Positions 36,185-64,000 of a DNA stretch of 64,000 bases are shown piece by piece; position 1 is the stretch's first letter; each line of letters begins with the position of its first letter. A model generated the notes under the pieces. That model was given only the letters and a program-made list of their open reading frames with translations, did not search any database and had not been told where the DNA came from. The stretch is from a virus, in IMG/VR virus record IMGVR_UViG_3300045988_131786, positions 86,055-150,054 of that record; one strand, given 5' to 3'. The position numbers and the translations under genes are program-made.

Positions 36185-36484
36185 TCACTCTCCTTTATCA
36201 AAATCAATTTTATTTACTGAGCTGACTTCTTTTCCATACCCAGCTTTTTCATCAAGAGATTTTTTCATTTGATTTAGCATATCTACAAATTCATTAAACT
36301 CCCAATAATCTTGGAAAATAAAACTAATCATATTTGCATCAATTATATCTAATGCATCTTTATGTTCCCGAGAAAATTTACATTTAGCCCAATATCTGTC
36401 TCCATGAATAGGTACTTCTATATTAAAACCCGCATAATCTCTTAATGGATATTTATCAAGGTTAAAAGGCTCATCTACTATCAT
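36185..36484 (-). CDS. Hypothetical protein
   Basis: ORF. Confidence 0.35.
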   Translation of the reverse strand: MIVDEPFNLDKYPLRDYAGFNIEVPIHGDRYWAKCKFSREHKDALDIIDANMISFIFQDYWEFNEFVDMLNQMKKSLDEKAGYGKEVSSVNKIDFDKGE

Positions 36485-37593
36485 AATAAAATCCTTTCTT
36501 TAAATAATGTAAGAAACTTTTCTTTTCCTTCATCTATTGGAGCATCTTTATACCTAGTTATCATTTCTTTGTCGAAAATAAAAGAAATATTTACATAATT
36601 ACTATATTTTGAATGAAGTTTTAAAAGATTCTTTTTAAGATGTTGAAATTCTGCATCTCCTATTTCTTGGAACTGTCTATCAAAAGCTACTATAATTTCT
36701 TCTACACTTGCGCGCAATAGCATTTCTATCTGATAATTAGAAATATTAGAACCACAACAAGCTACTGAAATATCATTATCTATACCAAAATAACTTTTAT
36801 ATTTTAAGCAAGATTTTTCCGATTCAAACACAATTACTTTCCGAATTTTTGAGATATTTTCTTTAATATAATAGTAATTATATAAATTCATTCCAAGAGG
36901 GTGATTATACATTATCTGATTAATTCTAAGTGGTCTATATTTTCCATATAATTCCGCTTCCTCTTTAATCATTGTTCTTCCACGAATTCCTACAAGTCTA
37001 CCAGTTTCATCAACATGCGGAATTGTGATTTGCGCCCCTCCTGGATAATAACCAATACGCATAAAATCTAATACTTCTTGACTTATATCTTCATCAATCC
37101 AAGGCTTTAAAATTACATCATAATTAAATCTGTCTAAGATTTGTTTATTATATTCTTTAAGAGTAATTATTCCTTGCTTTTTTGGTTCAATACTTTCTAT
37201 TCTTTCATATCCAGAAAAGATTTTAAAATCTTCGCTGTTAATTAATTCTTCTTGTTCTTGAACATATTCTCCAGAAAATCCAAAATAAGAAGCAACCCAT
37301 CGAACTGCATCATTTAAGTCAATATCTATATCTTTTTGGATTTTATTAACTTTTCTACACAATTCAAATACATCAAAAAAAGATTCCGCACATCCAGTAT
37401 AACAAATAAATAAACCACTATTTTCATAAAAATAAAGTTTTCTACTTCCTATACCTGGTGGATTATGACATATTGTAGAAGAAATGATGCCGAAGTTTGT
37501 ATACTCCGGCTCACCTCCCCATAATTGAAGTAAAGCAAAAATATGTTCAATTTGTAAATGTTCACGTATTTCTACTTTATCATAATTAATCAT
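36481..37593 (-). CDS. DnaG-like DNA primase (CHC2 zinc finger plus Toprim-like region)
   Basis: CHNPPGIGSRKLYFYENSGLFICYTGC matches the CHC2 zinc-finger pattern. Acidic Toprim-like segment VIVFESEKS. Confidence 0.5.
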   Translation of the reverse strand: MINYDKVEIREHLQIEHIFALLQLWGGEPEYTNFGIISSTICHNPPGIGSRKLYFYENSGLFICYTGCAESFFDVFELCRKVNKIQKDIDIDLNDAVRWVASYFGFSGEYVQEQEELINSEDFKIFSGYERIESIEPKKQGIITLKEYNKQILDRFNYDVILKPWIDEDISQEVLDFMRIGYYPGGAQITIPHVDETGRLVGIRGRTMIKEEAELYGKYRPLRINQIMYNHPLGMNLYNYYYIKENISKIRKVIVFESEKSCLKYKSYFGIDNDISVACCGSNISNYQIEMLLRASVEEIIVAFDRQFQEIGDAEFQHLKKNLLKLHSKYSNYVNISFIFDKEMITRYKDAPIDEGKEKFLTLFKERILL

Positions 37594-37903: not shown

Positions 37904-38411
37904 TTATTCTTCAAATGTCATCATTTTATCATCATCTAAAACATTGATAGAGACATTATCTATTTCTATTATATCATAATTATAAGTTGTAGCAAACATA
38001 GGTTCAATTCTACAAGTTCCTAAATCTGCTTTACAAAATAGGTAAATTCCTTTATACCTTCCTCGTCTATTTTTATATATTGATAATTTAATTGTTGGCG
38101 TATCAAAAGCATTTGTTGCTAAAATACTTTGAAGAGCTTCTAAATCTCTAGTTGTGACGCTAAGTAAAATACTACCATAATCAATTTTATCTGCGATTGA
38201 TTTTGCTCCACGAAGTAAATTCTGGTCAGGTGTTTCTGAATCTTTATAAGTCCCATTTAACTGAGTCGCAGACATAATAAAGATACCATATTGATTACAT
38301 AAATCTTTTAAGCGATTAGATAACATAAAAAGAATATTATCTTCTCTAAGTTTTACCCCACCGGAGCGTTTAGTTATCTCTTCAAGAATCTTTAGGCTAG
38401 TATGTATATAA
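37904..38411 (-). CDS. DnaB-like replicative helicase, exon 2 (C-terminal part). The upstream boundary is approximate.
   Basis: ...LSNRLKDLCNQYGIFIMSATQLNGTYKDSETPDQNLLRGAKSIADKIDYGSILL matches the DnaB region [29 protein letters not shown]...ADLIM. The in-frame extension upstream of the annotated Met (…HDYIHTSLKILEEITKRSGGVKLREDNILFM) continues the DnaB alignment. Confidence 0.6.
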
Positions 38412-39474
38412 TCGTGACGCGAACTTCTTATATTTCTATAAGCGCTGACTATCTCTTACTTAACTAATATAAGTTAAGGAAACCGTTTCGGCATTTAACT
38501 AGCTTCGTTACCTAAAACTAGACTATGTACTAATAATAGCCCTACTTCCCTGCCCAGAAGGCTTAGGGAATAGTCGATACAGGTTCTTTAGACGTTTTTC
38601 CAGGTTCTTTTTTTAATAATGTCTGCAACGGTTGATTTTGATATACCATAATTTTTAGCTAAATTTTCATAAGAAATATTATTTTTTTCTCTATCTTCCC
38701 TAATCTGTTTAACTAATTCAGCATTTAATTTAGTATGTCTTTTTCTAACTTTAAATACTTCTGGCATGATTAAACCATATCTTTTTCCAGACCATATATT
38801 TAAAAAAGAATTAAAATGTAGCCTATCTTTGTATTTCTCATTATATATTTTTGTTGGACTTTCATTATTTAGATAAGCTTTTCTAAGTTCAATAATTTCT
38901 GACTCTGTTAATTTTGCTTGACCCCAAATTTCTTTTTTTCTATGCTCTAAAGTTTTCGGTTTAGAGCAATTTTTCCCACCATCTTCTACATTATAACCAT
39001 TAGGAACTTTAGTATTATAAAAATTAATATAATATATTTCTAATTCATTTAAAATATTTATATCATCAATATCTTTTACCAAAATTTCATATTTAAAGCT
39101 TTCATATCCATATTTTCTAAAAGCTTTATGTAATAAAGAATTATAATCAGAATTATTTGGATTTTTATATGCTGATTTATGTGCTGCATATCTTGCTTTT
39201 GGATTCACAGTTTGTCCAATATATTTTTTATTATTTTTTAAATTTGTATAACAATATATAATTCCCATATGTTATACCTCCTTTCATAATTAATATGAAA
39301 GGAGTCAGAAATTATTTAACTACTTACGTCCAAAGTTTCCCACGGGACTCCCTTATTTTTCAATTTAGGGTCCCCCGTTAGCATACATACCATTGTTTTG
39401 GTGTATGTATACCCCTAGCAGTCACTAGGCAAAGTTTTTCATTGTCCCAACACCCTTTTAATAGGGTTGAACAC
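38412..39474 (-). mobile_element. Group I intron (boundaries approximate) interrupting the DnaB-like helicase gene and carrying a GIY-YIG homing endonuclease ORF
   Basis: The helicase reading frame is broken between the two exons. The intervening DNA contains GC-richer structured segments (agtttcccacggga..cccgttagc ; ctgcccagaaggcttagggaatagtc) that recur at about 90% identity in the second intron at 44080..45158. Confidence 0.6.
38588..39268 (-). CDS. GIY-YIG homing endonuclease (intron-encoded), with a C-terminal helix-turn-helix
   Basis: GIIYCYTNLKNNKKYIGQT...R...H (GIY-x10-YIG); EDGG; C-terminal HTH (ISKSTVADIIKKRTWKN). GGAGG RBS upstream. Confidence 0.8.
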   Translation of the reverse strand: MGIIYCYTNLKNNKKYIGQTVNPKARYAAHKSAYKNPNNSDYNSLLHKAFRKYGYESFKYEILVKDIDDINILNELEIYYINFYNTKVPNGYNVEDGGKNCSKPKTLEHRKKEIWGQAKLTESEIIELRKAYLNNESPTKIYNEKYKDRLHFNSFLNIWSGKRYGLIMPEVFKVRKRHTKLNAELVKQIREDREKNNISYENLAKNYGISKSTVADIIKKRTWKNV

Positions 39475-40509
39475 AAACCTAACATCATGGTCGCGAATAT
39501 TCCGCTTTATTGTATTTTCTATATCCTGCAAATTAAAGTCTGGTAGTTCTTCTACATATAAAGGAGCTTTTGAAAGAATTTCCGCAGCTTTGAGTACTCT
39601 ATCTTCCTCATCACCTTCATATTTACCATTTAAAATATGTTCTTCATTTACATTTGAAAGAAAAGCTAACATCATTGTTTGTATTTCTTCCAATTCCTGC
39701 TCAGTTGTAATAAATAAAGTAGGATTACAAGCCCCTGTACTTATCCAACCAAATGTTTCATTATATATATGACTACAAGCTATATAGCAAGCATCTGCCA
39801 CCATTGACCTTGTCTTGCCAATCCCCGTGGCGGCTGACCGCAAATAAAACTTCTTTAATCTTGCACCACGAGTAACTGTATTAATAAGAGGTCCATATAA
39901 TGGAACACCTACTTCTGGATATTGTTTAAATTTTTCAATTAAATCAAAAACACCTTCGCCCGCTTGCTCACTAGCATTTTGAACATCATCAACATATTGC
40001 ATTCTGATAAGTTCAATTTTATCATTCACTCTACTGGCTATGTCGGTTAAAGAACAATTATCAAGTAGCTCTTCTTGTTCTTGTTTCTTTTTCATATCTA
40101 ATATATTATCTGGATCATATATATCAGATACATCAATCCCAAAATTATCAAATGCTCTTAATAGAGTCATTTTTTTAAGTCGATTATAATAATAATCAAA
40201 AGCTAAAGGGGAAGCACCATCTGAGGCTTTAATTAACCACTCTTCACCTTTTTGCTGCTTATATAAAGCTCCACTAGTTGGATGTGTTTCAAAAAAATCA
40301 GATACAGTTTTTAAATTTACCTCTTTTGCGCCTTGCTCATGAATTTTATATAAAGCCCCAAAAACTATTTTATGAAATTCATTAGAAAAGTCTTCTTCAT
40401 TTATTGTATATCTATCTTTTTCATCTAATAAAGATAAATTTTTAAATACATTTCCTATAACTTGAACTATAGCCGAAACATCTACATATTTACTTGCCAT
40501 TAATATCAA
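39475..40509 (-). CDS. DnaB-like replicative helicase, exon 1 (N-terminal and RecA-like core). The 3' boundary is approximate.
   Basis: Walker A GIGKTRSMVADACYIA; APLYVEE (the DnaB APIYIDD region); ...RDHDVRFVF parallels DnaB RDHGGLSLIMIDY. Confidence 0.65.
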
Positions 40510-45864: not shown

Positions 45865-46854
45865 TTATTTTATACTATAACCAAAATCTTTGGCATGAAA
45901 ATATTCTTGCCAATAATCTTCACGTTCATTTAATTCTTCTGGTTTTACTTTTTCAATTACTTCAAAAGTAAAATTTTCTGGTCCACTCTCTTGCATTGCT
46001 GGATATAATTTATTGCGGGTTGGCGTTTCTGCGCCTACTCCACGTTTGATATGCTGTCGCCAACGCTCTCGAATATTGACCGCCTGCCCAATATAACATT
46101 TTCCATCTAAAATATTTGTAATTTTATAAATACCTGTAATATCTTTATCTCCAATGACTCTACCAATTAAAGCATTATAAGGTTTTTCATAGTACACTTT
46201 ATAAATTACTTTATTAATAGCATCTGGATAACGAATATTAGAACTTACCTCACGTAGTTTTTTAATTTCTGCAACATCTTGTTCTGATAATTGGAGTCTA
46301 TAAAAATCTTGCTGAGACTCTTTTTCTTCTTCACGTTTTTTAGCTTCAACAGCCGCATCTACAAGAGACTTATATTTTTCTAATTCATTTCGGAATTGAA
46401 GAATTTCATTTTTTTTATTTTTAGAATCTTCATTAAAACCTTTTACAATTTCTTCAACAGATTTTAAATAAGCATCTTTATAAGAACTTCTATCTTCTTC
46501 AAGTTTAGCAGATAATTTTTCTGCTTCTCTATCATAAGTATCATTTAATCCATTAATAAATTCTTGTAACTTCATAGATTCTTTATTATAAGAGTCTTTT
46601 AACTTTGTAATTTCACTCGTATAATTAAAAGATTCTTTAGTCAATGCTCTAAGAGTACCTCTCATTTTAGCTATTTTAGATTCATAATCTTCATTAGTTA
46701 AATTAAGAAATTGTTTATTAGATTCTAATTCTTCAATATCAAATTCTAATAATGATTTAGTTTTCTTTAATTTTGAAATTTGATAAATTTCCAGACAAAT
46801 TATAATCAAACCTAAAATACCTAAGAAAAACATTATTAAATATAATACATTCAT
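45865..46854 (-). CDS. Membrane-anchored coiled-coil protein with a C-terminal GIY-YIG nuclease domain
   Basis: N-terminal transmembrane helix VLYLIMFFLGILGLIIICL; about 180 aa of coiled coil (KLKDSYNKESMKLQEFINGL...); C-terminal GIYKITNILDGKCYIGQAVNIRERWRQH...ENFTFEVIEKV...REDYWQ. Confidence 0.6.
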   Translation of the reverse strand: MNVLYLIMFFLGILGLIIICLEIYQISKLKKTKSLLEFDIEELESNKQFLNLTNEDYESKIAKMRGTLRALTKESFNYTSEITKLKDSYNKESMKLQEFINGLNDTYDREAEKLSAKLEEDRSSYKDAYLKSVEEIVKGFNEDSKNKKNEILQFRNELEKYKSLVDAAVEAKKREEEKESQQDFYRLQLSEQDVAEIKKLREVSSNIRYPDAINKVIYKVYYEKPYNALIGRVIGDKDITGIYKITNILDGKCYIGQAVNIRERWRQHIKRGVGAETPTRNKLYPAMQESGPENFTFEVIEKVKPEELNEREDYWQEYFHAKDFGYSIK

Positions 46855-49648: not shown

Positions 49649-51985
49649 TCATACTTTTGTTATTGAACTAATATTACCATGCTTAATTAACTGATTTCCA
49701 ATAGCATTTCTACCTTGCAGAGGAATATCTTTAGCAGAAATACAAATTGAATTTGGTACTCCCACTAGAAGAATAGAATCTTCATCAGAAATTAAACTTG
49801 CGCCAATAACCTCTCCAGATACATCTGTTGGTTTATAACAAATTAAGCCTTTTCCTGCTCGTTTTTGTCTAATAGCTTCTTTAAGAGAAACTTTCTTTCC
49901 GAGACCTTTCTCAGAAACAATAGCAATTTGGTCATCTTCATGACGGACTGGTAAAGCTGAAACAACCTCATCTCCATCTGCAAGATTAATACCTTTCATA
50001 CCCATCGTCGCACGAGAGCTAGAAGTAATCTCACTAGAAGCAAATCTAATCATCATACCTTTTTTGGTAATAAGAAGAATATCTTCATCCTTAATAAGAT
50101 TTACAGAAGCTAAACTATCATCTTCCCGCAAATTAATTGCCGCAAGACCAGTTTTCTTTTTAGTCTTAATATATTCTTCAAGACTTGTTTTCTTAACGAT
50201 ACCATTTTTAGTTGCAAATAAAACATAATTTGCATCAGTATCTCTATAAATGGAATAAATGAGAGTTGGCTTTTCATCACTTTCCATTTCAATAAGAGAT
50301 TGTAATGACTGACCTTTAGTTGCATTTGTTCCTACTGGAATATTATCAACTAAGATACGATACATTTTACCTTTATTTGTAAATACCATAAGAGAATCAA
50401 TAGTATTTGTGCGGATAACCGCAGATACAACATCATTCTCGGTTTTAATACCTTTTCCATTTCTTCTCTGGGTGCGGAAACTAGAACTTGGGATTCTCTT
50501 AACAAGACCACCTTCTGTCATAACCACAACACATTTTTCTGGTTCTACAAATGCAATTTCTTTTTCTTCTGGTTTAATTTCAATATGAGTTAATTCTGTT
50601 TTTCTAGGATTACCATATTTTTTTACAAGCGTAAAAATATTTTCAACTAATATATCTTTACGTTTATCAGCACTTTCAAGCAATTCAATTAAATTTGCTA
50701 TAGTTGCATTTAGTTCATTTAATTCATCTTTAATTTTAATTCCGTCTAATTTTGTTAATTGACCAATCGTCATTTTTAATACACAATCAGCTTGATGAGA
50801 ATTAAAATTCCATTTAGTCATTAAATTATTTTTTGCTTCTGCTTTATTATTACTATTTCTAACTATTTCAATTATTTCATCAATATGAGCAATAGCAATT
50901 AATAAACCTTCACATTCTTCTTTTCTTAATTCAGCTTTTTCTTTATCAAAATTATATTCACGAACTAAACATTCATCATTATGTTTATATAATAATTGAA
51001 AATATCTCTCAGTATTTACGAGTTGAGGAATTTTATCAATTAATAAATTTTGATTAGCTGAATATGATTTTTGTAAATCAGTTTTTTTATAAAGCATTTG
51101 TAATACTTTATAGGGGTCAGCTTTTTTATCACAAATTATTTTAATATTAATTCCTTTTTTACCAGAATTATTTAGAATATCTGCTACACCAGGTAATTCA
51201 TCTTGGTCATATAATTTTTTAAAATCTTCCATTAAATCTCTTACACAAGTTTGATAGCAGATTTCTGTAATAATAATTGTATTTTTCTCAACTTCTGCTT
51301 TAGCTCTTAAAACAACTTTACCTTTTCCAGTCTTTAAAATAGTATCTAACTCTTTCTGATTTATAATTATACCGCCAGAAGGAAAAGAAGGACTTAATGT
51401 ATAATCCATTTTTCCTGTTTTAATATAATTAGCATAAGCCGTTGATACTTCAGCTAAATCATAAGGTAACCATTTTTGGGCGATTGTAGTTCCAATCCCT
51501 TCACTACCATTAATCATTAATGTTGGAAGTGGAGAAGGAAGTACCTCTGGCCACTCAACTGTTTCATCAAAATTCATGATGAATGGAACATTTTTCTTTT
51601 TAATTCCAGTAAACATCTCTAATCCAGCTTTACTAAGTCTTACTTCTGTATAACGACTAGAAGCTGCTTCTGGAATAATTTGGTTACCATTAGAACCATG
51701 AAATTCACAAAGAGGAACATTATTTGTAAATCCCTGAGACATACGAGCAAAAGTCTCATAAATAGCTGTATCACCATGCGGCCAAAGCTCTGCGATAACT
51801 CCACCAGATACCTTGGCGCTCTTTACGTGAGGTTTATTTGGAAGATAACCTCGTCTATACATTTCATATAAACAAGCTCTTTGTCCCGGTTTTAATCCAT
51901 CAATTGCAGGGAAAGCTCGCTCTACATTGGTTTGATAACAATAATCCAAAAAGTCTTGTGACATCTCTTCAATAAAATCTATCAT
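49649..51985 (-). CDS. Type II DNA topoisomerase, DNA-cleavage (GyrA/ParC-like) subunit
   Basis: ELWPHGDTAIYETFARMSQGF matches the GyrA HPHGD motif region. 778 aa. Confidence 0.8.
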   Translation of the reverse strand: MIDFIEEMSQDFLDYCYQTNVERAFPAIDGLKPGQRACLYEMYRRGYLPNKPHVKSAKVSGGVIAELWPHGDTAIYETFARMSQGFTNNVPLCEFHGSNGNQIIPEAASSRYTEVRLSKAGLEMFTGIKKKNVPFIMNFDETVEWPEVLPSPLPTLMINGSEGIGTTIAQKWLPYDLAEVSTAYANYIKTGKMDYTLSPSFPSGGIIINQKELDTILKTGKGKVVLRAKAEVEKNTIIITEICYQTCVRDLMEDFKKLYDQDELPGVADILNNSGKKGINIKIICDKKADPYKVLQMLYKKTDLQKSYSANQNLLIDKIPQLVNTERYFQLLYKHNDECLVREYNFDKEKAELRKEECEGLLIAIAHIDEIIEIVRNSNNKAEAKNNLMTKWNFNSHQADCVLKMTIGQLTKLDGIKIKDELNELNATIANLIELLESADKRKDILVENIFTLVKKYGNPRKTELTHIEIKPEEKEIAFVEPEKCVVVMTEGGLVKRIPSSSFRTQRRNGKGIKTENDVVSAVIRTNTIDSLMVFTNKGKMYRILVDNIPVGTNATKGQSLQSLIEMESDEKPTLIYSIYRDTDANYVLFATKNGIVKKTSLEEYIKTKKKTGLAAINLREDDSLASVNLIKDEDILLITKKGMMIRFASSEITSSSRATMGMKGINLADGDEVVSALPVRHEDDQIAIVSEKGLGKKVSLKEAIRQKRAGKGLICYKPTDVSGEVIGASLISDEDSILLVGVPNSICISAKDIPLQGRNAIGNQLIKHGNISSITKV

Positions 51986-53907
51986 TCTTCACTCTCCCAT
52001 AAATCATTTGCTTTATTTCCATTAGCTAATAAAAACTGTCTTCTTCCAGTAACACTTGTTCCCATTAACATTTCAAGATGTTTTTCAGCTTTTATAGCAT
52101 CTTCAACGACTAATTGTTTTACGTTTCTTGTTTTTGGGTCAAGAAGAACATCTGATAATTCATCTGCATCGCACTCTCCAAGACCTTTCATACGATTTAC
52201 TCTATATTTTTCACCAATATGTTTCTTTTTATAATCCTCTAAAGCCTGAGCATCTTTAATATAAATATATTCATTTTTATTTGTTGTTATTCTAAATAAA
52301 GGCGCATATGCTACATAAAAATGACCATTTATAATAAGTTCTGGACATAAACTCCAAAGATTAACAGCAATTAACATTCTGATATTTTGTCCGTCTGGAT
52401 CACCATCTGTATCTGCAATAATCTTACCATAACGCAATTTACTTTTATCATAAATTAATTTGCCCTTATCATTAAGCTCTAATCCTAAAGCTTTAATAAG
52501 ATTATTCACTTCTTGATTAGCCATTACTTTTTCATTTTTATTTTTAAAACTATTTATCATTTTTCCTCTAATCGGGAAAATAGCCTGATACTCAGCTATT
52601 CTCGCACCAACTAGACCTGAAGCAGCACTATCCCCCTCACAGATATGCAATTCCGCCTCCAAACGATTTTCAGTAGAACAATCAACTAACTTAGATGGAA
52701 GATTTGCTAATTTAGATTTTTTATTACCTTTTGTGGCTCTAGCAACTTCACGAGCTTTCTTTGCCGCATTTCTAGCTCTTCGCGCAAGTAATGCCTTTTC
52801 AATAATTGTTTTTACATCTTTTGGATTTTCATTCATCCATTCAACAAAATTTACATTAATTGCTTCAAGAATAAGAGCCTTATCAATGTCTGTTACACGT
52901 ACTTTAGTCTGGCTATCATATTTAACAGATTTTGCTTTTAAATTAAATACAATAATTAATCCTTCATTTAATTCTGCGCCAGTTAAATTTGTTTCATCTT
53001 TTTTATATAATTTATTGTCATTTGCATATTTATTTAATGCACGAGTTAAATTTGCTCTAAGGGTAGTAAGATGAATACCACTTTCTACTTTACCATAATT
53101 GACATAGCTTACAATATCTTCTGAATAACCAGAAGTATAAGTCATACAAATATCAATTAAATCATTACCTTTAACAATATGTGCATTAAAACGCTTTTTG
53201 ATAATTTCATCATCTTTAACTTTTTCATCCACAAGGTCATTAATACCATTCTTAGAATGAAAATCTTCTTCTTTTCCATCAATAATCAATTTAATAGTTA
53301 AAGTTGGACTAAGAGCAGACTCTTCTTTAAATAATGTGCGGATGTCATTCAAATTTGCTTCTGGATTTTGAAAGAATTGCGGGTCTGGAATATAGGTAAC
53401 TTTAGTGCCATGAACCCCAACTTTTTCTTTAGTAATTTCTCTTTTCTGGAATAAACCATCCTTATACCAAAGTGTTTCTCTTTGACCTTTACCATCAGAT
53501 GTAGTAATCATTGAGCTGGATGAAAGGAAGCAAACAAGCTTCATACCAATTCCATTAAGTCCAAGTGCACTACCACCATAAATAGAATCATCAGAATCAT
53601 CATATTTACCAGAAGTATTAATTACTGAAAAACATTCAGAAAGCATTGTTTCACCATCTGGTCTTTCTACTCCTGGAATAAAACCTTGTGCAAAATCTTC
53701 ACAAGTATATTCATTTTTCTTTGTATCCACACTAATGATAATTTCAGTTCCATGACCGATAATATGTTCATCATGTGCATTTGCAAATAGCTCTTTTAAA
53801 AGCTGTGTACTATATTCAGTAGAACCACAATATGTACTAGGTCTTTTTCTTGTAAATTCTCTAGCATCAATATGTTGCGTACTATTCTCATTATACTTTT
53901 TTGACAT
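51982..53907 (-). CDS. Type II DNA topoisomerase, ATPase (GyrB/ParE-like) subunit
   Basis: Toprim ICEGDSAASG and PIRGKMIN motifs; N-terminal GHKL ATPase region. Confidence 0.8.
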   Translation of the reverse strand: MSKKYNENSTQHIDAREFTRKRPSTYCGSTEYSTQLLKELFANAHDEHIIGHGTEIIISVDTKKNEYTCEDFAQGFIPGVERPDGETMLSECFSVINTSGKYDDSDDSIYGGSALGLNGIGMKLVCFLSSSSMITTSDGKGQRETLWYKDGLFQKREITKEKVGVHGTKVTYIPDPQFFQNPEANLNDIRTLFKEESALSPTLTIKLIIDGKEEDFHSKNGINDLVDEKVKDDEIIKKRFNAHIVKGNDLIDICMTYTSGYSEDIVSYVNYGKVESGIHLTTLRANLTRALNKYANDNKLYKKDETNLTGAELNEGLIIVFNLKAKSVKYDSQTKVRVTDIDKALILEAINVNFVEWMNENPKDVKTIIEKALLARRARNAAKKAREVARATKGNKKSKLANLPSKLVDCSTENRLEAELHICEGDSAASGLVGARIAEYQAIFPIRGKMINSFKNKNEKVMANQEVNNLIKALGLELNDKGKLIYDKSKLRYGKIIADTDGDPDGQNIRMLIAVNLWSLCPELIINGHFYVAYAPLFRITTNKNEYIYIKDAQALEDYKKKHIGEKYRVNRMKGLGECDADELSDVLLDPKTRNVKQLVVEDAIKAEKHLEMLMGTSVTGRRQFLLANGNKANDLWESEE

Positions 53908-57088: not shown

Positions 57089-58336
57089 TTACATTAATTC
57101 AGCTTGTTCAGCTATTTTACTTCTATAAATTTTTTGTAATTCAATTTCACCATAATAGTCGCAACCTCTGAATACCTCAGACATTTTTCGCATACCATTA
57201 TTTGCACCACTATATAAAATTGAATCTACTTGATGTTTGGTATCTCCATCAATAATACAAATACTATCTTCTCCAATACGTTGAAGAGCAAGTCTCATTA
57301 ATTCAACACTTAAATTTTGAGCTTCTGTAATATATATGCCTGCATTTAATCCAGTAGTATCAAATCCACGTAAGTCAGACATTGGTAATAACATAAGTTT
57401 TCTGTCAGTAATTAATCTTTCTACTTCAATTCTATCGCCAAGTTTGCTAGAAAGCATATTACCTATTTGTGAATCCAATAACTTATCATTTTTATCGCCT
57501 GGATAATAGCCAAGTTTTGCGGCGCCTTGAGCGGCAATTGTATTACAAAATACTATAATTTTATCTATCTTGCGCTTTTCAAGCTGCTCAAATAGAAAAC
57601 CGAGACTTAAATAACTTTTACCAGAACCCGCACGTCCTTGAATCATTGTAATTTGATTATTATTAAAAGATTCTAAAGCTGCGCATTGGTAAGCATCTTT
57701 TGGAGTAATTTTACCAAACATATAACTTTCAGTTTTATAATAATGAAGTTGTTCAAATCCATTCTCAGTTCTTTTATATTTATCTACTATTTCTCCTTGC
57801 GGATTTTTAATAAATAAATATTCATTAATTAAACAATTGAATTTTTTAGAAATTTCCTTGTCAAATAAATCTGCATAAATTTGTGCTAATTCTTCATCAG
57901 AAGAATAAGTAATTTCTTTAAATCCTGTATAATCATCAGTGCTTTTTTCTACAACTGAGATTATATGGTCATTATCAAAGAAAATTGTTGCTAGTGATCT
58001 TAAGCATAAATCATTAGAACAAAAATAAACTTCGTCAGGATAATTATAAGCAGAAATTAAGATTCTACTATCATTATTATCTGGTAAATTATATTTTTTA
58101 ATTAATTCAGATAAATCATAATAAATATCAGTAATGAACTTTTCTTTATTTTTATCTAAAATTCTAGTTAAATGCCTTGCGGCATATTTAACATCAGCAT
58201 CTTTTTTATCAGAACTTTTTATGTCTTCCAATTCCCGCAATGAAACTGAAGAGATAATTACTTGTTCTTCTGGATTATCAAATAAAGTATCTGCAGTTAA
58301 TAGCAGACTACAAGTATCATAATAGATATTTCTCAT
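57089..58336 (-). CDS. PIN-domain plus PhoH-like ATPase fusion (PhoH2/YlaK type)
   Basis: N-terminal PIN-like YYDTCSLL...D. C-terminal Walker A GRAGSGKSYLSLG followed by PhoH-like motifs. Confidence 0.65.
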   Translation of the reverse strand: MRNIYYDTCSLLLTADTLFDNPEEQVIISSVSLRELEDIKSSDKKDADVKYAARHLTRILDKNKEKFITDIYYDLSELIKKYNLPDNNDSRILISAYNYPDEVYFCSNDLCLRSLATIFFDNDHIISVVEKSTDDYTGFKEITYSSDEELAQIYADLFDKEISKKFNCLINEYLFIKNPQGEIVDKYKRTENGFEQLHYYKTESYMFGKITPKDAYQCAALESFNNNQITMIQGRAGSGKSYLSLGFLFEQLEKRKIDKIIVFCNTIAAQGAAKLGYYPGDKNDKLLDSQIGNMLSSKLGDRIEVERLITDRKLMLLPMSDLRGFDTTGLNAGIYITEAQNLSVELMRLALQRIGEDSICIIDGDTKHQVDSILYSGANNGMRKMSEVFRGCDYYGEIELQKIYRSKIAEQAELM

Positions 58337-58584
58337 TCGTCTTCTTCTGCCTCGCTTTCGTCCTCTTCTACTGTTGGTTCTGTAATAAAACCTATTGAGT
58401 TAGAAGTGGTTTCTTGTGGTTGACTTGCTTTTTCATAATCGGCTCGTAATTTAGCTATTTGAACTTGCATTTTTCCTTTTTCAACTTCGCATTTTTGAAG
58501 TATTAAACTAGAAAAAGAATCAAACAACTCAAGTCCTGCTTTTGCTGTAAACATGCCAAGTAAGAAATATTTTAATTTATTCAT
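58333..58584 (-). CDS. Small protein with an N-terminal hydrophobic segment and an acidic tail
   Basis: ORF with FLLGMFTAKAGL and a C-terminal EEDESEAEEDE. Confidence 0.3.
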   Translation of the reverse strand: MNKLKYFLLGMFTAKAGLELFDSFSSLILQKCEVEKGKMQVQIAKLRADYEKASQPQETTSNSIGFITEPTVEEDESEAEEDE

Positions 58585-58633
58585 ATATTTTCCTTCTTAT
58601 ATAGATTTATAATTTTTAAATTAAAATATTTAT

Positions 58634-59059
58634 TTATTTTTGACCTCTATTACGATTGCGCCTGATTTTTTGGTAAAACTTTTCCTTTTCCGCGATGTAT
58701 TCTATTAAGGTATCTTTCATTTCTTTAAGGGAATTTTCATTTTCTTTAATATCTTTTTCTCTTCTTCTAATTTCTTTTATAAGTAATTTAACTTCACGAT
58801 TTTCTTCATTATAGTATGGATTAAATTTAAGCAAACTATGAAAATCTTTTAAAGCTTTTAATTCTTTTTTAGATTCTTTAATTAAACGCTTTAGAAATTT
58901 AATATTGGCACGAGTTTCTGCAATCTGTAATCCAGTTTTTTCATTCATCATATCTGCATCTTCTGGATGGCAATGAGCTTCACCATCATAAATACTTCCA
59001 TCATTATCTATAATAGTATATTTAGCAATTCCATTATGATATATATAAGTTGTTTTCAT
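58634..59059 (-). CDS. Hypothetical coiled-coil protein
   Basis: ORF. Confidence 0.35.
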   Translation of the reverse strand: MKTTYIYHNGIAKYTIIDNDGSIYDGEAHCHPEDADMMNEKTGLQIAETRANIKFLKRLIKESKKELKALKDFHSLLKFNPYYNEENREVKLLIKEIRRREKDIKENENSLKEMKDTLIEYIAEKEKFYQKIRRNRNRGQK

Positions 59060-59194
59060 ATATCGAATCTCCTTTATTTTATTAAAAAATTATACAATAA
59101 AATAAGGTAATTATCAAATTTAGACATTTTGCTCAAAAAATTTGTATAGGCGAGTGGAAACCAACAAGCGGACCTGACACTAGATACGGGTATT

Positions 59195-59225
59195 AAAAAA
59201 GGAGACCTATAAAAGGTCTCCTCAT
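59195..59225 (-). terminator. Rho-independent terminator downstream of the flotillin-like gene
   Basis: On the - strand, ggagacc ttttata ggtctcc followed by tttttt. Confidence 0.6.
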
Positions 59226-59227
59226 AA

Positions 59228-60775
59228 TTACTCATTTGTATCTATATTTGTTTCTTTAAAAGATTCAACAGCTTTTGTTCCAAGAACGCCAGCTAAAAGA
59301 GATTTAATGTCAATACCAAGAGATTCACTTAGTCCCTCAGAAACCTGAGTTACATTAGTCATAATATCTCCAGCAAGTTTAGATGTATCTCCGCCAAACA
59401 TCATAATCTTATCAACATTTGTATATCCTTTACCAACAGCTTCAGCGATTGCAGGTAACTGCTCGAAGTAAAGTTTAAGTGTTTCAAGTTTCATGTTAAT
59501 AACCGCCGCATCCTGGTAGTTTTTCATTGCTTCCGCTTTCTTCTGAAGACCTTCTGCTTCAGCTTCAAGTTTAGCTTTAATTGCAGCAGCTTCAGCCTCA
59601 CCTTTAGCTTTTGTTGCAGCTGCATCAGCTTCACCCTGAGCTTTTACTGCATCTGCAAGTGCTTTTTTAGCTTCAGAATCTCTCTGTGCTTCTGCAAGAG
59701 CTGCTTCTGCCTGTTTTGTTCTTTCAAACAATTCAGCCTCAGATTTCTTCTGAGTTTCATACAGTTTAGCATCAGCTCTCTGCTGTGCTGCATACTTCTC
59801 AGCTTCAGCGGTCTTTTTAACTTCAGCTTCCAGAGCGCGCTCTTTGATAGCGACTTCTCTTTCTTTTAACTCAATCTGTTTTTCTTGACGAGCAATATCT
59901 GCTTCAGTAGCAGCAACATCTTTAACCTGACGCTGTCTCTCATCCTCAATAGCTTTTGCTGCAGCAGCCTGCGCTTTGCGGGTATCCGCACTTTTCTTTA
60001 AATCTGCCTGTTTGATTTCAAATTCATTGTTACGAACTGCAATTTGTTCAGCAGCTGCAACTTTAGCATCATTGGCAGCTTTAGAGTTCTGAGCTTCTGC
60101 AATAGCAACTTCTCTTTCAGCATTAGACTTAGCAATAGCAGCATTTTTAGAAATCTGTGCCATATTGTCCTGACCAAGAGCAGTGATAAGATTTTTCTCA
60201 TCCTCTAACTTCTGAATATTGCAGGACTCAATCCAAATACCAAGAGCATTCATGTCCTTCTGTGCTTTTGCTTGAACTTCATCTCCAAAAGCCTTACGGT
60301 CATTACATAACTGCTTTAATTCCTGGGTTCCAATGATTTCTCTCATGTTACCCTGTAAAGAATCCTGCAAAGACTGCTCAATCTGCTCTTTAGACATATT
60401 AAGGAAGTTTTTCATAGCTGCGGCAACCATCTCAGAGGTAATACCTTTTTCTTCATCTTTAAGGTCATTCTCAGTAAGGACTCTTACTTTTGCAACTGCA
60501 TCAATATTTACACCAATAAAATCCTTAGTTGGAATATAACCATTTGTTTTAATGTCAATAGACATCTGACGCAATGTTAAAGTATCCAAACGTTCAAAGA
60601 AAGGAATCTTAATACCGGCTTTACCAATTAAAATTCTAGGTTCTTTGTGGAAACCAGAAATAATGTAAGCTGTATCCGGTGGAGCTTTAACATATCCTGA
60701 AGCAATTACCGCGATAACGACAACCGCAAGTAAAACAAAGGGTACGAACGGTAAGATAGTTGTTAGAAAATTCAT
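59228..60775 (-). CDS. Flotillin / SPFH (band 7) domain membrane protein
   Basis: N-terminal transmembrane helix ILPFVPFVLLAVVVIAVIASG. SPFH core GVNIDAVAKVRV... Long Ala/Glu/Lys-rich coiled coil (EAEAA...) typical of the flotillin family. Confidence 0.75.
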   Translation of the reverse strand: MNFLTTILPFVPFVLLAVVVIAVIASGYVKAPPDTAYIISGFHKEPRILIGKAGIKIPFFERLDTLTLRQMSIDIKTNGYIPTKDFIGVNIDAVAKVRVLTENDLKDEEKGITSEMVAAAMKNFLNMSKEQIEQSLQDSLQGNMREIIGTQELKQLCNDRKAFGDEVQAKAQKDMNALGIWIESCNIQKLEDEKNLITALGQDNMAQISKNAAIAKSNAEREVAIAEAQNSKAANDAKVAAAEQIAVRNNEFEIKQADLKKSADTRKAQAAAAKAIEDERQRQVKDVAATEADIARQEKQIELKEREVAIKERALEAEVKKTAEAEKYAAQQRADAKLYETQKKSEAELFERTKQAEAALAEAQRDSEAKKALADAVKAQGEADAAATKAKGEAEAAAIKAKLEAEAEGLQKKAEAMKNYQDAAVINMKLETLKLYFEQLPAIAEAVGKGYTNVDKIMMFGGDTSKLAGDIMTNVTQVSEGLSESLGIDIKSLLAGVLGTKAVESFKETNIDTNE

Positions 60776-60827
60776 AAATTCTTTTCTCCTTTTTATTTAG
60801 TTTTCAATGTACTATTTATTCAAAAAG

Positions 60828-61390
60828 CTACACAGCTTTTTGTTCATTAAATTTAATTTTCATATCTTCAATAATTGTATCTAAAGAAACTGGAAAACAA
60901 TTATGTGCATCAACTGCTACATTATACAGATATGAAATATTATTATAAAACTTATCTTTAAAATGCGTATGACCCGAAAGCCCGCAAATAGCTTGATGAA
61001 GAGATTTAATTTCTCCATTACTTGTTACTGTTGGATAATGACTTAAATAAAAATGATATTTTTTATATTTAAGCATTGTAGCATATCCTTCATCAATAAT
61101 GCCGATTTCAGAGTAAAGGCGGCATCGAGTCGAGGTATCGTGATTCCCACGAACGAAATGTTTATTTCCATTTAATTGCCGCAGACATTCAAGTCCATGT
61201 TCATTATCGCATAACATCAAATCACCAAGAATATACAAATCGTCTTCTGGTTTTACGATTGAATTAAAATTCTTAATAATTGCTTCATTATGCTCTTCAA
61301 CAGAAGTAAAACCTCTTGGTTCATAAATAAAATCTTTATTATGACCTAACCAAAGTGGAGATCACTTGTTAAATAAATCATTCCACTCAT
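60828..61390 (-). pseudogene. Calcineurin-like metallophosphoesterase whose frame breaks about 15 codons after the start. It could be a frameshifted pseudogene, a sequencing indel or a recoding site.
   Basis: Frame A 61390..61346 reads MSGMIYLTSDLHFG then a stop. Frame B, at -1, continues WLGHNKDFIYEPRGFTSVEEHNEAIIKNFNSIVKPEDDLYILGD...GNHD...GHTH. Confidence 0.5.
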
Positions 61391-61391
61391 T

Positions 61392-62135
61392 TTATTCTTC
61401 ACCAACCTTTCTCCATATTCGTCCTCCTACGGTTGAATACCGAGAAGAACCAGCTATACATTTTCCAATGCTTTGTCTATTTATTTTTTCTACTCTTGAT
61501 GCTTCACTAATACTATCATAATAAACAATATCTTTAGGATTATCTTTTTTTATACCATAAATAGCAGTTCTCCTTTTTCGAGTTTTCATTTCTGGAATAA
61601 TAACTTTATTATTTTCATCTAAATAACGAAAAATTAATCCATTACAAGAATAAACGTCTCCATCGCAAATTTGTTTAACTGAACTTGCTCTTGCGTCTCT
61701 ATCCCAACCTTGTTTTTCAGCTGCGTCATGAAGAGAATTATAAATTTCTAAAATTTCATTTTTTTCATTTACTAAAGCACATTTTTTACTAACTTTTTTA
61801 ATATATTTTTGAGTATTTTCATGTGCAAGAGAATTTGATGTTGTGCAAGTTGTTTGATTATATCCGTTAGGAACTAAAGAACTATAATGAATAATTTCAT
61901 AATGCTCATAACCCTGCATTTCTTCTATTGTTAAAAAATCATCTTTTAAAATTTCAAAAGAAAAATTTTTAACTCCATATTTTCTAAAAGCCTTATACAA
62001 GGGATAATTATACTGAGGATTATTTTTATTAAAAGCGGCATTAATATGCTCTTTCCATCTTTTATTAACCCTTGTACTAGAACCAATATAAATTTTATTA
62101 TTTATTTTATTAGTAATTTTATAAACAGTTTTCAT
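61392..62135 (-). CDS. Free-standing GIY-YIG homing endonuclease (Seg-like)
   Basis: VYKITNKINNKIYIGSS...R...H...N motifs. Its stop codon abuts the start of the phosphoesterase gene. Confidence 0.75.
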   Translation of the reverse strand: MKTVYKITNKINNKIYIGSSTRVNKRWKEHINAAFNKNNPQYNYPLYKAFRKYGVKNFSFEILKDDFLTIEEMQGYEHYEIIHYSSLVPNGYNQTTCTTSNSLAHENTQKYIKKVSKKCALVNEKNEILEIYNSLHDAAEKQGWDRDARASSVKQICDGDVYSCNGLIFRYLDENNKVIIPEMKTRKRRTAIYGIKKDNPKDIVYYDSISEASRVEKINRQSIGKCIAGSSRYSTVGGRIWRKVGEE

Positions 62136-62237
62136 ATATAATATACTCCTTTTTCTTTCATTATATTATATAAAAAAGAAAAATAATATATTATATATTT
62201 TTGACCTACATTTTAGACATTATGACAAAAATGTAAA

Positions 62238-62765
62238 TCACTGGTCAGGTAAATCAATTGTAATACCTCCTTCATTTACTTTAGCGATTGCAAAATAAGT
62301 ATATTTTTCAGAAAAAGTTGGTTTTTCAAACTGTTCATTCATTCTACGAATAACTCCTCTAGGAACATAAGCGAGTTCATCGTTTTTTCTTAATTCATTT
62401 CTGCTTAAACAAGTTTCAAGAGGAAGCTCAAAGCTAAAAGGAATAATTTTAACATCTTTAAGATTTAAACTATCAAGTAATTTATTTCTTGATTTCTGAT
62501 TAAGCTGAGTAGCATCCGCAATAACAAAATCAATTTTTTCATCAAGATATTTCTGAATAGTATCAATATATTCTTTCCAAACTTCTTTTTCTTTATCAAA
62601 ATATTGAATATTTTTATTTTCACGAAGTTTAGCAAAACGAATAGCATCTCTTGAAACTATTTCAAAAGTATTCTTTCCAATTCCGTCTACAATTTCTTTT
62701 ATAGAACGAAAAGTAGTAGATTTTCCAGAACCAGGTATTCCACAAGCAACATATAAAGTTGTCAT
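62238..62765 (-). CDS. P-loop polynucleotide kinase-like (AAA_33 / Pnk N-terminal domain-like) protein
   Basis: LYVACGIPGSGKSTTF Walker A plus RDAIR. About 175 aa, as in the kinase domains of T4 Pnk-like enzymes. Confidence 0.5.
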   Translation of the reverse strand: MTTLYVACGIPGSGKSTTFRSIKEIVDGIGKNTFEIVSRDAIRFAKLRENKNIQYFDKEKEVWKEYIDTIQKYLDEKIDFVIADATQLNQKSRNKLLDSLNLKDVKIIPFSFELPLETCLSRNELRKNDELAYVPRGVIRRMNEQFEKPTFSEKYTYFAIAKVNEGGITIDLPDQ

Positions 62766-62766
62766 A

Positions 62767-63036
62767 TTAAATCAACTCTCCCTTTAAATATTCTAAACTT
62801 TCTTCTAACTCTTCTTTAAAAACTCCATCTTCAAAATCCTGTTTAAATTGAAATACATCTTCTTCATTTCTACATTCTACATGATTTACTTCAATGCGAC
62901 AATGTGGACAATACATTTTTTTTCTGTGAAATCTTGCCTTCTGCCCGCCTTTTTTCCTTGGCAAGTCATAGCTTTTATTGCCACATTTCATACAATAAAA
63001 GCTATTAAATACAATATTATTATTTCTTCTTCCCAT
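62767..63036 (-). CDS. Small zinc-ribbon protein
   Basis: CMKCGN...CPHCR cysteine pairs. Confidence 0.35.
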   Translation of the reverse strand: MGRRNNNIVFNSFYCMKCGNKSYDLPRKKGGQKARFHRKKMYCPHCRIEVNHVECRNEEDVFQFKQDFEDGVFKEELEESLEYLKGELI

Positions 63037-63103
63037 TTCTTTTCTTTTCCTTATCTTTAATTGATAAATATATTATATAATAATTTTAATAATTTATCAA
63101 TTA

Positions 63104-63784
63104 TTATACTTTAAAGTAAATGGTTTCAAAGGTTTCAAGGTCTAAAAGAGCTATTGTGTTAGTCCAAAAGGAACCACAATCAATATCAATTTTATGACCA
63201 AGGGCATATGTATATACATATGGCTCTGATTCATCATCTACATCTGCAATATAGCACCAAGGTGTATGTCCATGTACTACATATACATCGGGAAACTCTT
63301 TAAAGTCAAAAGCATCATGAATATGTTTTCTATCCCAAATAAAATCAGTAAGTTTAGAGCCAGGAGTAAAACCAGCATGTGACAATACAACAATTTTGCC
63401 ATCTTTCCGGTAATAGGTTGCAGTTTTCTGGAGCCCCATAATTTTGCGGCACCAAGTTAAATTTGCCCCATCTGCTTCCCATTGTTCACAAGTGGATTTT
63501 CCGCCATTTCTTACATGAAGATAAAAATTATCTCCGCAAAAATAACCATATTTGCTATAATCATCAATGCTTTTAGCTAACATATCCTCATGGTTTCCTT
63601 TAAGAAAAATAAATTGTGGGTCATAATAAATTGACTTAAAACATTTCCAAGGCTCTGGACCACGGTCAACAGCATCACCTAAAAAATATACTTTATCTTC
63701 TGGACCGATAAAGTCTTTAATTTTTTTATAAAGACTATAAACGCCATGAATATCTGAACAACAATATGTACTCATTTTAATCAC
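63104..63784 (-). CDS. Calcineurin-like metallophosphoesterase (Ser/Thr phosphatase or 2',3'-phosphatase-like)
   Basis: CCSDIHG, GDAVDRG, GNHE and VVHGHT motifs in the canonical order. Confidence 0.7.
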   Translation of the reverse strand: MIKMSTYCCSDIHGVYSLYKKIKDFIGPEDKVYFLGDAVDRGPEPWKCFKSIYYDPQFIFLKGNHEDMLAKSIDDYSKYGYFCGDNFYLHVRNGGKSTCEQWEADGANLTWCRKIMGLQKTATYYRKDGKIVVLSHAGFTPGSKLTDFIWDRKHIHDAFDFKEFPDVYVVHGHTPWCYIADVDDESEPYVYTYALGHKIDIDCGSFWTNTIALLDLETFETIYFKV

Positions 63785-63949
63785 TCCTATTAGAATCTCA
63801 TTACTGGTAAGCCTTCTTCTTTTAGCTTTTGATAAATATCTTCTTCTCTGACATCATACCAGGTAGGATGTTCATGTTGAATTAATTGTATCGCTAAAGT
63901 TTCACATACATCCTGTAACTGACTTTTTTCACAACCGCCAAATTCAATC
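63785..63949 (-). CDS. Small hypothetical ORF (about 54 aa), absent from the ORF track
   Basis: ATG...TAA ORF on the - strand (MIEFGGCEKSQLQDV...). It overlaps the next upstream coding region, which is cut off by the window end. Confidence 0.2.
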
Positions 63950-64000
63950 ATTATTAAATCCTCCCTTTAATTTATATATATAAATTAAAGAACTCTCAGA

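Follow-up and report, generated by a model that had tools for sequence, protein, structure and literature searches.

The element described here lies in a 64,000-nucleotide (nt) stretch of viral DNA (IMG/VR virus record IMGVR_UViG_3300045988_131786, positions 86,055 to 150,054), referred to below as the window. It is a mobile GIY-YIG homing endonuclease cassette which, with near certainty as judged by sequence comparison, sits inside the motif I codons of a metallophosphoesterase (MPE) gene, MPE1. Between 58 and 64 kb of the window every gene is on the minus strand, and the order of transcription is an open reading frame (ORF) of 53 amino acids (aa), a second phosphoesterase gene (MPE2), a zinc-ribbon gene, a P-loop kinase gene, the GIY-YIG endonuclease gene, the MPE1 region, and the genes for SPFH/flotillin and PIN-PhoH. 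An earlier note on this DNA had entered 60828..61390 as a metallophosphoesterase gene and had described the homing endonuclease as free-standing. The former is not an intact gene, as its span of 563 nt is no multiple of 3 and reading from the ATG at 61390 meets a TAG (61348..61346) after just 14 codons (MSGMIYLTSDLHFG). As to the latter, the GIY-YIG endonuclease is real, but it forms an intragenic mobile cassette within MPE1 and does not simply stand free between genes, since a second copy of the MPE1 5' end overlaps the 3' end of the kinase gene. The features of the locus are given in Table 1.

Table 1. Features of the MPE1 locus and the adjoining module genes (window positions)
Feature	Position	Strand	Details
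Native MPE1 5'-end remnant	62213..62275	-	20 codons (MKEVLQLIYLTSDLHFCHNV, then stop); overlaps kinase 3' end
Cassette left end	62136..62221	-	remnant stop, motif AAAATGTAGGTCAAAA (62214..62199), AT-rich promoter-like stretch, endonuclease ribosome-binding site (RBS)
GIY-YIG homing endonuclease	61392..62135	-	247 aa, NUMOD-type DNA-binding tail; Pfam GIY-YIG 2e-7
Restart module	61349..61390	-	ATG and cassette-borne copy of MPE1 codons 1-14 (MSGMIYLTSDLHFG); proposed take-off GGT 61351..61349
Predicted RNA hairpin	61353..61388	-	5' arm GAGUGGA 61388..61382; 3' arm (U)CUCCACU(U) 61361..61353; dG (folding free energy) -9.5 kcal/mol
5-nt coding gap TAGGT	61344..61348	-	TAG stop 61348..61346; proposed landing GGT 61346..61344, one-base overlap with stop
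MPE1 body	60828..61343	-	171 codons and stop from resume codon CAT; HNKDF...GD...GNHD...SHYP...GHTH...DAH
P-loop kinase, polynucleotide-kinase clade	62238..62765	-	175 aa; Pfam AAA_33 2e-18, KTI12 5e-10
Zinc-ribbon protein, module member	62767..63036	-	89 aa, CxxC...CxxC; conserved synteny
MPE2, lambda-phosphatase/NinI-like metallophosphoesterase	63104..63784	-	226 aa from GTG; Pfam Metallophos 1e-11

The MPE1 body begins HNKDFIYEPRGF and continues LGDL...GNHD...SHYP...GHTH...DAH in a frame different from that of the 14-codon start, and the insert TAGGT parts the Gly codon from the His codon of motif I (ttt GGT TAG GT CAT aat). Deletion of TAGGT yielded a gapless alignment with the invariant motif S-D-x-H-F-x-H (S9, D10, H12, H15); the motifs DxH, GD, GNH(D/E), H, and GHxH all align without gaps only when the 5 nt are skipped, and in MPE1 as encoded DxH is confined to the separate 14-codon ORF. 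The S-D-x-H-F-x-H spacing was invariant in an 11-sequence alignment, and inspection of 80 homologue loci found it kept in essentially all. The joined protein matched Pfam Metallophos (1.5e-5) and PHROG 547 (4e-43), and its closest solved relative was an uncharacterised Aquifex protein (1xm7). In the mechanical ORF list the body is represented just by a TTG-started fragment of 136 aa (60828..61238), and public gene calls at such loci are fragments of 82, 136, or about 155 aa.

The identical endonuclease protein was found on 15 public contigs, and the junction sequence was identical in four independently assembled samples, the identity extending over 640 nt around the junction, or 439 nt where the contig was shortest; a sequencing or assembly error was thereby ruled out as the source of the 5-nt insert. 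Recoding of TAG in the window phage was likewise ruled out, as ORFs of at least 100 codons cover 94% of the window under the standard code and no tRNA genes were found in the window (TAG is the rarest stop there, 6 of 73); a recoded TAG would not rescue MPE1 anyway, because the 5-nt insert stays out of frame. Termination and reinitiation was rejected because no start codon in the MPE1 frame lies near the stop and a start further downstream would lose DxH.

The boundaries of the cassette were read from related loci or contigs, which carry L-numbers as labels. Four IMG/VR contigs (L001-L004) have no endonuclease, and their kinases are 91-98% and their intact MPE1 genes 90-93% identical to the kinase and the MPE1 body of the window; in these contigs the 3' end of the kinase gene overlaps the start of MPE1, MKEVLQLIYLTSDLHF(C/S)HSKSFIYEPRGF. 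The remnant in the window, a second, diverged copy of the MPE1 N-terminus, tracks these relatives until TTTTGTCAT and diverges after it; it is native as far as CAT at 62222, and its final two codons and stop (AAT GTC TAA) are cassette-derived. Agreement with the endonuclease-less relatives is regained from TTTATTTATGAACC. The arrangement is therefore that of a 20-codon native 5' remnant on the left, the endonuclease, a new RBS and ATG with a copy of codons 1-14, and the 5-nt insert. The restart ATG sits 1 nt past the endonuclease stop, and the codons of the restart module (M-S-G-M-I-Y-L-T-S-D-L-H-F-G) are foreign and synonymously different. The first 12 nt of the body (CAT AAT AAA GAT, against CAT TCA AAA TCT in the relatives) look like a tract co-converted from the donor. 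The endonuclease matched TIGR01453 (1e-25), with weak matches to NUMOD1 and I-HmuI_NUMOD-like. Over the stretch given in Table 1 the cassette left end is nearly identical in L016; its motif was also found in L011, with diverged forms in L174, L338, and L362. Matches to promoter consensus in the left end were no commoner than in shuffled sequence, and its promoter function is only presumed.

L016 carries the same cassette at the same codon: the endonuclease is 89% identical, the left end and GGTTAGGTCAT are identical, and L016 has endonuclease-less relatives of its own (L263-L270). The kinases of L016 and the window are 49% and their MPE1 proteins about 60% identical, so that the shared cassette marks the element as horizontally mobile and targeted to the motif I codons. 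The endonuclease is more conserved than the flanking genes, and the site is fixed and polymorphic for presence (window, L016) and absence (L001-L004, L263-L270). In L346 and L347 the endonuclease proteins and the tract just past the insert are identical over MPE1 bodies of 85% identity, which points to homing with co-conversion. At E<=1e-20 the homologues of the endonuclease formed 281 clusters, with proteins of two sizes, about 246 and about 312 aa. In 12 of 12 distinct lineages sampled by look-up an MPE gene lies directly downstream of the endonuclease, with a disrupting insert in the restart copy; a kinase lies upstream in 11 of them, L361 being the exception, and the remnant is recognisable in most. 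In L361 (logan SRR16020868_117554) a tRNA-like 3' end (GGGTTCGAGTCCCACTTGTGGCAC) at 1361..1440 precedes the endonuclease, and the kinase is absent there.

In total, 18 distinct insert-bearing genes, including three MPE subfamilies, were collected with inserts of 4-7 nt, and in all 18 the downstream ORF is intact (162-221 codons) and holds every catalytic motif. A nineteenth, L377, was found later (downstream ORF of 164 codons). The inserts fall into ten variant classes (Table 2), and removal of the insert always restores the canonical S-D-x-H-F/L-x-H.

Table 2. Insert variant classes (the vertical bar marks the point where decoding would resume)
Variant	Hop	Loci	Remarks
GGT TAG GT|CAT	+5	window, L016, L350, L360	
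GGT TAG C|CAT	+4	L338, L340, L342, L344, L346/L347, L358	commonest variant
TGT TAG C|CAY	+4	L362, L364, L377	
TGT TAG T|CAT	+4	L361	
TGT TTAAAGT|CAT	+7	L353	no stop directly after TGT
CAC TGA CAT|TTT	+6	L011	
CAT TGA CAC|TTT	+6	L176	
CTT TAA CTA|AAT	+6	L174	
CAT TAG G CAC|CTG	+7	L365	
AAT TAA C|CAC	+4	L289	perfect TTAA tandem duplication, no endonuclease nearby

A stop follows the take-off codon directly in nine of the ten classes (the exception is L353). In six classes the triplet that precedes the resume codon repeats the take-off codon or is its wobble equivalent or synonym (GGT/GGT at +5; CAC/CAT, CAT/CAC, and CTT/CTA at +6; CAT/CAC at +7; AAT/AAC at +4), and in the other four the two agree at positions 2 and 3. 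With a chance of full match of 1.5-6% per variant, the binomial P was about 6e-6, or 6e-4 when counted conservatively (B1 and B2 counted once, L289 dropped). The two His codons are swapped between L011 (CAC..CAT) and L176 (CAT..CAC). Among the +4 variants, take-off at xGT goes with TAG and take-off at AAT with TAA, so that stop and take-off codon vary together, and the last two bases of the stop help to form the landing triplet. Each of the three in-frame 6-nt inserts has a stop as its first codon; a tolerated insertion of two residues would need no stop, and this is counted in favour of bypass.

The insert was also found apart from the endonuclease. L358 (IMGVR_UViG_3300045988_158685) and L360 (IMGVR_UViG_3300035520_000497) belong to other phosphoesterase subfamilies (HENAIKFDGRPF and HSNIINYCNRPF types) and carry the micro-inserts GGTTAGC|CAT and GGTTAGGT|CAT with no full endonuclease adjoining, which suggests that the insert patch alone can spread by gene conversion. 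The MPE1 homologue in L289 (IMGVR_UViG_3300031992_000039, 2459..2510) reads TTT AAT TAA C|CAC after a 5' hairpin, with neither endonuclease nor kinase nearby, and its insert could be a hit-and-run immunity patch or a plain frameshift.

In the window the predicted hairpin, obtained by folding the 48 nt upstream of the take-off codon to minimum energy, ends 1 nt short of that codon. In all 18 insert-bearing genes the 3' arm of the hairpin ends 0-2 nt before the take-off codon, against 8 of 58 unique native genes (Fisher, about 1e-11), and the hairpin shifts along with the take-off position at codon 12, 13, or 14. The insert-bearing hairpins range from -6.3 to -10.4 kcal/mol, with a mean of -8.73 against -5.75 kcal/mol for the endonuclease-less genes. 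The arms differ between loci and compensate each other (AAAUGAGUA / UACUCAUUU; GAGUGGA / UCUCCACU; GAGUGCUA / UUGGCACU; AAAAUCUGG / UCAGAUUUU; GCAAAUCA / UGAUUUGC; GGUCAGAU / GUCUGAUC), and chimeras with foreign 3' arms lost about 3 kcal/mol on average. RNAalifold gave no consensus on 13 restart modules because the hairpin uses at least two pairing registers, and folds of 101-nt windows were not significantly stable (z of -1.5 to +1).

From these results we consider it probable, at roughly 0.6, that the insert breaks the target site of the endonuclease and that full-length MPE1 is made by a peptidyl-tRNA "stop-hop" over it. The insert would destroy the recognition or cleavage site in the rebuilt gene, so that the phage would be spared by its own enzyme, and by the hop the invariant active-site motif would gain no residues. 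While UAG occupies the A site, the peptidyl-tRNA-Gly would unpair from its GGU and re-pair with the GGU 5 nt downstream; decoding would pick up at CAU and continue ...TSDLHFGHNKDF..., and the N-terminal tryptic peptide of the +5 product would be (M)SGMIYLTSDLHFGHNK. The hairpin built from the start region together with the codons immediately 5' to the take-off codon would favour forward movement of the mRNA, and related cassettes with 4-, 6-, and 7-nt gaps at codons 12, 13, or 14 would follow the same logic. The restart modules keep an RBS, a start codon, and the sequence at the protein level (Ser as AGT or TCN, synonymous changes in Asp and His); because this copy is kept even though it is a disadvantage in homing, where it offers the broken end an endonuclease-free partner, it is presumably translated and useful. 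On terminal branches the ratio of nonsynonymous to synonymous substitution rates (dN/dS, omega) was 0.17-0.45 for MPE1 of the window, 0.06-0.14 for L016, and 0.06-0.23 for the endonuclease-less relatives; no relaxed selection was detected on the window and L016 branches by this test, which cannot date the insertion.

Several points weigh against this reading. The decoding is deduced from sequence throughout. The landing match is just two of three bases in the commonest variant (GGT TAG C|CAT) and in the TGT variants, L353 is without a stop right after the presumed take-off codon, and in L289 the TTAA tandem duplication would yield matched codons by mutation alone. Four hosts of TAG inserts (L340, L342, L344, and L361) are TAG-to-Gln recoded, so that their TAG may be a sense codon, or one slow to decode rather than a stop. 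The z-scores of the hairpins against shuffles are modest (-0.75 to -3.05), and the hairpin could regulate initiation or transcript stability instead. Synthetic stop-hops are inefficient, at about 1%, and the output here might be low. Intact ORFs and low dN/dS are no proof of selection after insertion because the invasions could be recent, and the 18 genes are not 18 independent trials because insert-bearing modules share ancestry.

The strongest competitor, which is possible but in our judgement rather unlikely, is a selfish knock-out in which the cassette inactivates MPE1, the micro-insert merely protects the regenerated site, no full-length enzyme is made, and the invasions are recent. It accords with the broken frame of the 4-, 5-, and 7-nt inserts and the stops in all three 6-nt inserts, with the MobA insertions in T4-like phages, most of which are likewise judged recent, and with the occurrence of the cassette in only one IMG/VR relative among the best 80 MPE1 loci, as expected of a transient parasite; the insertion is, moreover, undatable by dN/dS. 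A knock-out leaves unexplained, however, why an RBS, a start codon, and a protein-conserved copy of codons 1-14 are kept when the copy would lower homing efficiency, why the hairpin tracks the take-off codon, and why 18 of 18 genes show no further decay while the endonucleases have diverged to about 50% identity.

Recoding of another kind, by which one or two extra residues would enter motif I, would take the form of a -1 shift in the window (...HFG-LG-HNK...), a +1 shift at GGT_TAG_C (...FG-S-H...), and readthrough of the 6-nt inserts. Shifts of +1 are classically stimulated when a stop codon occupies the A site, the 4-nt variant is without a perfect landing codon, and TAG is readable as Gln in the TAG-recoded phages. 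Such recoding is nonetheless improbable, as it needs three separate mechanisms within one homologous element family; TTT GGT T in the window does not fit the X XXY YYZ pattern of a slippery site, shifting the window variant by +1 leads into a stop (AGG TCA TAA), the invariant S-D-x-H-F-x-H spacing makes it unlikely that insertions in motif I are tolerated, and no reason is given for the duplicated His/His and Leu/Leu codons around the stops. Least credible by far is an artefact, given the four identical assemblies and the related inserts in many contigs, or a self-splicing group I intron whose removal would mend the gene in the RNA, since, even though NCBIfam calls the endonuclease family 'group I intron endonuclease', an Rfam scan of 58000..64000 (E<=1) found no group I intron and no other RNA family, the restart ATG follows the endonuclease stop after a single nt, the 86 nt that precede the endonuclease are AT-rich and resemble a promoter, and the 5-nt insert would survive splicing.

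The stop-hop proposed for MPE1 has its nearest precedent in the T4 mobA/gene 60 cassette, on whose homologous family bacterial and phage programmed bypassing essentially rests. The bypass insert of gene 60 protects against self-cleavage by MobA and consists of matched codons plus a stop; among gene 60 relatives the take-off position shifts between neighbouring codons and the codons are always matched. A 2022 preprint survey described the gene 60 cassette as still unique, a 2016 review knew of no case of in-frame stop hopping in nature, and no description of the present cassette and micro-insert was found in a literature search. In both systems a homing-endonuclease gene lies within a conserved metal-binding motif of the host gene, the element provides a new start for the downstream part, and a short insert lies a few codons away, with a stop right after a Gly take-off codon and a matched landing codon. 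The target in T4 is topoisomerase II and here a phosphoesterase (the gyrase/topoisomerase genes of the window, 49649..53907, are intact ORFs), the nuclease is HNH-type in T4 and GIY-YIG here, and the cassette has no sequence homology to that of gene 60. The gap is 50 nt in T4 against 4-7 nt here. Unlike T4, the present cassette has neither a stop-enclosing take-off stem-loop nor an internal Shine-Dalgarno, and the 46-residue nascent-peptide signal could not fit, as take-off is at codon 12-14 and just 14 residues precede it in the window; nor is the gene split into two subunits, its first 14 codons being duplicated instead. The 5' hairpin abutting the take-off codon is conserved here, unlike the 5' stem-loop of T4, which shows no conservation among the relatives of gene 60; pairing of the exiting mRNA has also been proposed as the driver of forward bypassing. 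In T4 the protection of the genome by the insert is an experimental finding; in the present cassette both the bypass and the protection are presumed.

Synthetic stop-hops (+5/+6) function in E. coli (Weiss, Dunn, Atkins & Gesteland 1987, summarised in PMC5009743). They share with the cassette the matched codons around a stop and the decoding of 9 nt as one amino acid: CAC TGA CAT, CAT TGA CAC, and CTT TAA CTA have the exact stop-hop form, and GGT TAG GT of the window has the +5 form. The synthetic sites were engineered or selected in E. coli and are of low efficiency, whereas those described here occur in nature, in linkage with a mobile element and with a hairpin beside them. The 'byps' of Magnusiomyces capitatus mitochondria are also short mobile coding inserts, skipped by the ribosome, with take-off and landing codons that match, sometimes imperfectly; they differ in length (27-55 nt), in the relaxed decoding of the mitochondrion, in number (81 per genome), and in having no homing endonuclease. 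A bypass linked to a homing endonuclease would be known in kind, and its form here would be minimal, independently evolved, and experimentally tractable.

We lean slightly towards the wider claim that these sites form a large new family of natural programmed 'stop-hops', with an endonuclease of at least 281 clusters and gaps spread by patch conversion into other phosphoesterases, in standard-code and TAG-recoded gut and rumen phages, as a second, independent, minimal solution of the gene 60 type. If this is true, a far simpler natural bypass (5-nt gap, 14-codon leader, one hairpin) would be open to full dissection, nuclease immunity via an untranslated insert would be a recurrent evolutionary solution, and annotation would systematically mistake short frame-breaking inserts near mobile nucleases for pseudogenes or truncated ORFs.

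As to genetic codes, the endonuclease genes of L011 (4048..4986), L174, L176, L340, L342, L344, and L361 contain 4-6 in-frame TAG codons where the window has Gln, and these phages evidently read TAG as Gln, a recoding already known in phages. No such reading was found in the window phage, L016, L350, L362, and L364; since endonucleases occur under both codes, the cassette family crosses between standard-code and recoded phages.

Neither megablast nor a short 'distant' blastn against GenBank phages found a relative of the cassette, and none of the cultured phages of the GenBank collection had it; their closest endonuclease was 31% identical and their closest MPE1 homologues were intact and 33-37% identical. 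Cultured-phage MPE1 homologues with two features under the match were rejected as intact genes with overlapping neighbours. A scan of IMG/VR for the 16-mer left-end motif gave 78 matches, nearly all by chance. A generic X-stop-X scan of all loci was abandoned as too noisy, and the signature alone is no evidence because out-of-frame stops within ordinary ORFs produce it constantly. In a pattern scan of genome contigs 28 of 29 matches were by chance, mostly H-loop codons of ABC-ATPases ('...F(V/I)SHD') in another frame, and one was real, namely L377 (CACYVR010000001.1), a 138.8-kb contig with the insert-bearing MPE gene MSNIFLTSDTHFC-TAG-C-HDKPFIYANRGF. This contig is binned with a rumen metagenome-assembled genome named 'uncultured Methanobrevibacter sp.'; it is probably a mis-binned phage contig and points to a rumen or gut origin.

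Two MPE1 homologues with unusual sites are recorded separately. In L318 (IMGVR_UViG_3300031992_000032, 2501..2580) an in-frame TGA followed by GGAGG lies at the conserved FIY/WxPRGF motif (GAT TTT ATA TGA GGA GGC CCT), which could reflect TGA recoding, another recoding site, or a defect. In L307 (IMGVR_UViG_3300031853_000038, 2450..2560) MPE1 is intact (MSIYLISDTHFGHDREF), endonuclease-like fragments lie on both flanks, and the AAAAUGAGUAUU/GAUACUCAUUUU hairpin is kept with no insert; this may be a cassette after loss of the insert or before the insert arose.

The host module of the cassette was examined in turn. The kinase, MPE2, and zinc-ribbon ORFs listed in the earlier note proved real, and so did its assignment of the kinase to the Pnk type: a profile of 13 homologues run against PDB placed it in the clade of T4 Pnk and Clostridium thermocellum Pnkp (CthPnkp) and not with dNMP or adenylate kinases, with matches to PSTK (9e-19), the CthPnkp kinase (4gp7, 3e-18), T4 Pnk (3e-17), and Pnkp1 (2e-16), and adenylate-kinase-like chains at 6e-4 or weaker. 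The P-loop is GIPGSGKST, the residues G9, S13, G14, K15, S38, D40, R43, R93, and R126 are invariant among the 13 homologues, and the kinase matches PHROG 505 'polynucleotide kinase'. MPE2, which public assemblies call as a 223-aa product from an alternative start (ATG at 63775), matches lambda phosphatase (1g5b, 3e-6), the CthPnkp phosphatase domain (4j6o, 0.07), and PHROG 246 (1e-35). It is of the same phosphoesterase type as that domain (lambda-phosphatase type) and an equally good match to protein Ser/Thr phosphatases. Kinase and MPE2 both match the Pnkp-like PHROG 8238 (a phage family of 737 aa) in Pnkp domain order, and TIGR04075 weakly. In L299 (IMGVR_UViG_3300028888_000271) one ORF of 369 aa, containing 2012..3043, encodes both the kinase and MPE1, a Rosetta-stone fusion which suggests that the two act together.

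An end-healing module, as the earlier note had proposed, is favoured by the Pnk-clade kinase, the lambda-phosphatase type of MPE2, the conserved synteny, and the kinase-MPE1 fusion; the sealing half was not seen among the ORFs scanned. No RNA ligase, RtcB, or Hen1 was found by Pfam between 21.6 and 57 kb, where the scan took in 31 of the 32 minus-strand ORFs that reach 120 aa (the 140-aa ORF 37904..38326 being left out and 36481..37593, 370 aa, giving no match), nor among the ORFs from 57 to 64 kb, and the only ligase recovered was the NAD-dependent DNA ligase, as had been stated. Other ORFs of the replication module encode gyrase A and B, RNase H, Pol III alpha, NrdD/NrdG, guanylate kinase, dUTPase, RuvC, DnaB, and a RecJ-like protein. 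As in the Pnkp-type systems (T4 Pnk; Clostridium thermocellum Pnkp/Hen1), the module combines a kinase of this clade with a metallophosphoesterase of the lambda-phosphatase type; unlike Pnkp, the polypeptides are separate, the second phosphoesterase is of another subfamily, a zinc ribbon is interposed, and neither a ligase/adenylyltransferase domain nor Hen1 was found among the scanned ORFs. By a weaker line of reasoning than that for the cassette, the module is probably a nucleic-acid 5'-kinase/phosphoesterase system resembling end healing.

The order MPE2, zinc ribbon, kinase, MPE1 is kept across dozens of phage contigs, which makes the locus a widespread, uncharacterised kinase/phosphoesterase module of large phages. 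The zinc-ribbon protein matched Ribosomal_L33 of Pfam (9e-4) and L33 of NCBIfam (2e-4), both below the cut-off (curated, in the case of Pfam), and PHROG 1257 (1.5e-11), and it may be a phage-encoded L33-like protein. The module is followed by a 515-aa SPFH/flotillin and a PIN-PhoH fusion (window 57089..60775, minus strand), which also lie downstream of it in L016, L254, L338, L342, L344, L340, and L362, so that the conserved neighbourhood exceeds four genes.

Elsewhere in the window, a second GIY-YIG gene (38588..39268, minus strand) appears to split a DnaB-like helicase (37904..40509), of which the N-terminal part and half of the C-domain lie at 39439..40509 and the remainder of the C-domain (LKDLCNQYGIFIMSATQLNG...IYKNRRGR) in ORF 37904..38326, with about 260 nt and several stops between the two parts. 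A third ORF with a GIY-YIG domain, at its C-terminus (45865..46854, minus strand, 329 aa), adjoins the NAD-dependent DNA ligase, and the window is rich in homing-endonuclease-like genes.

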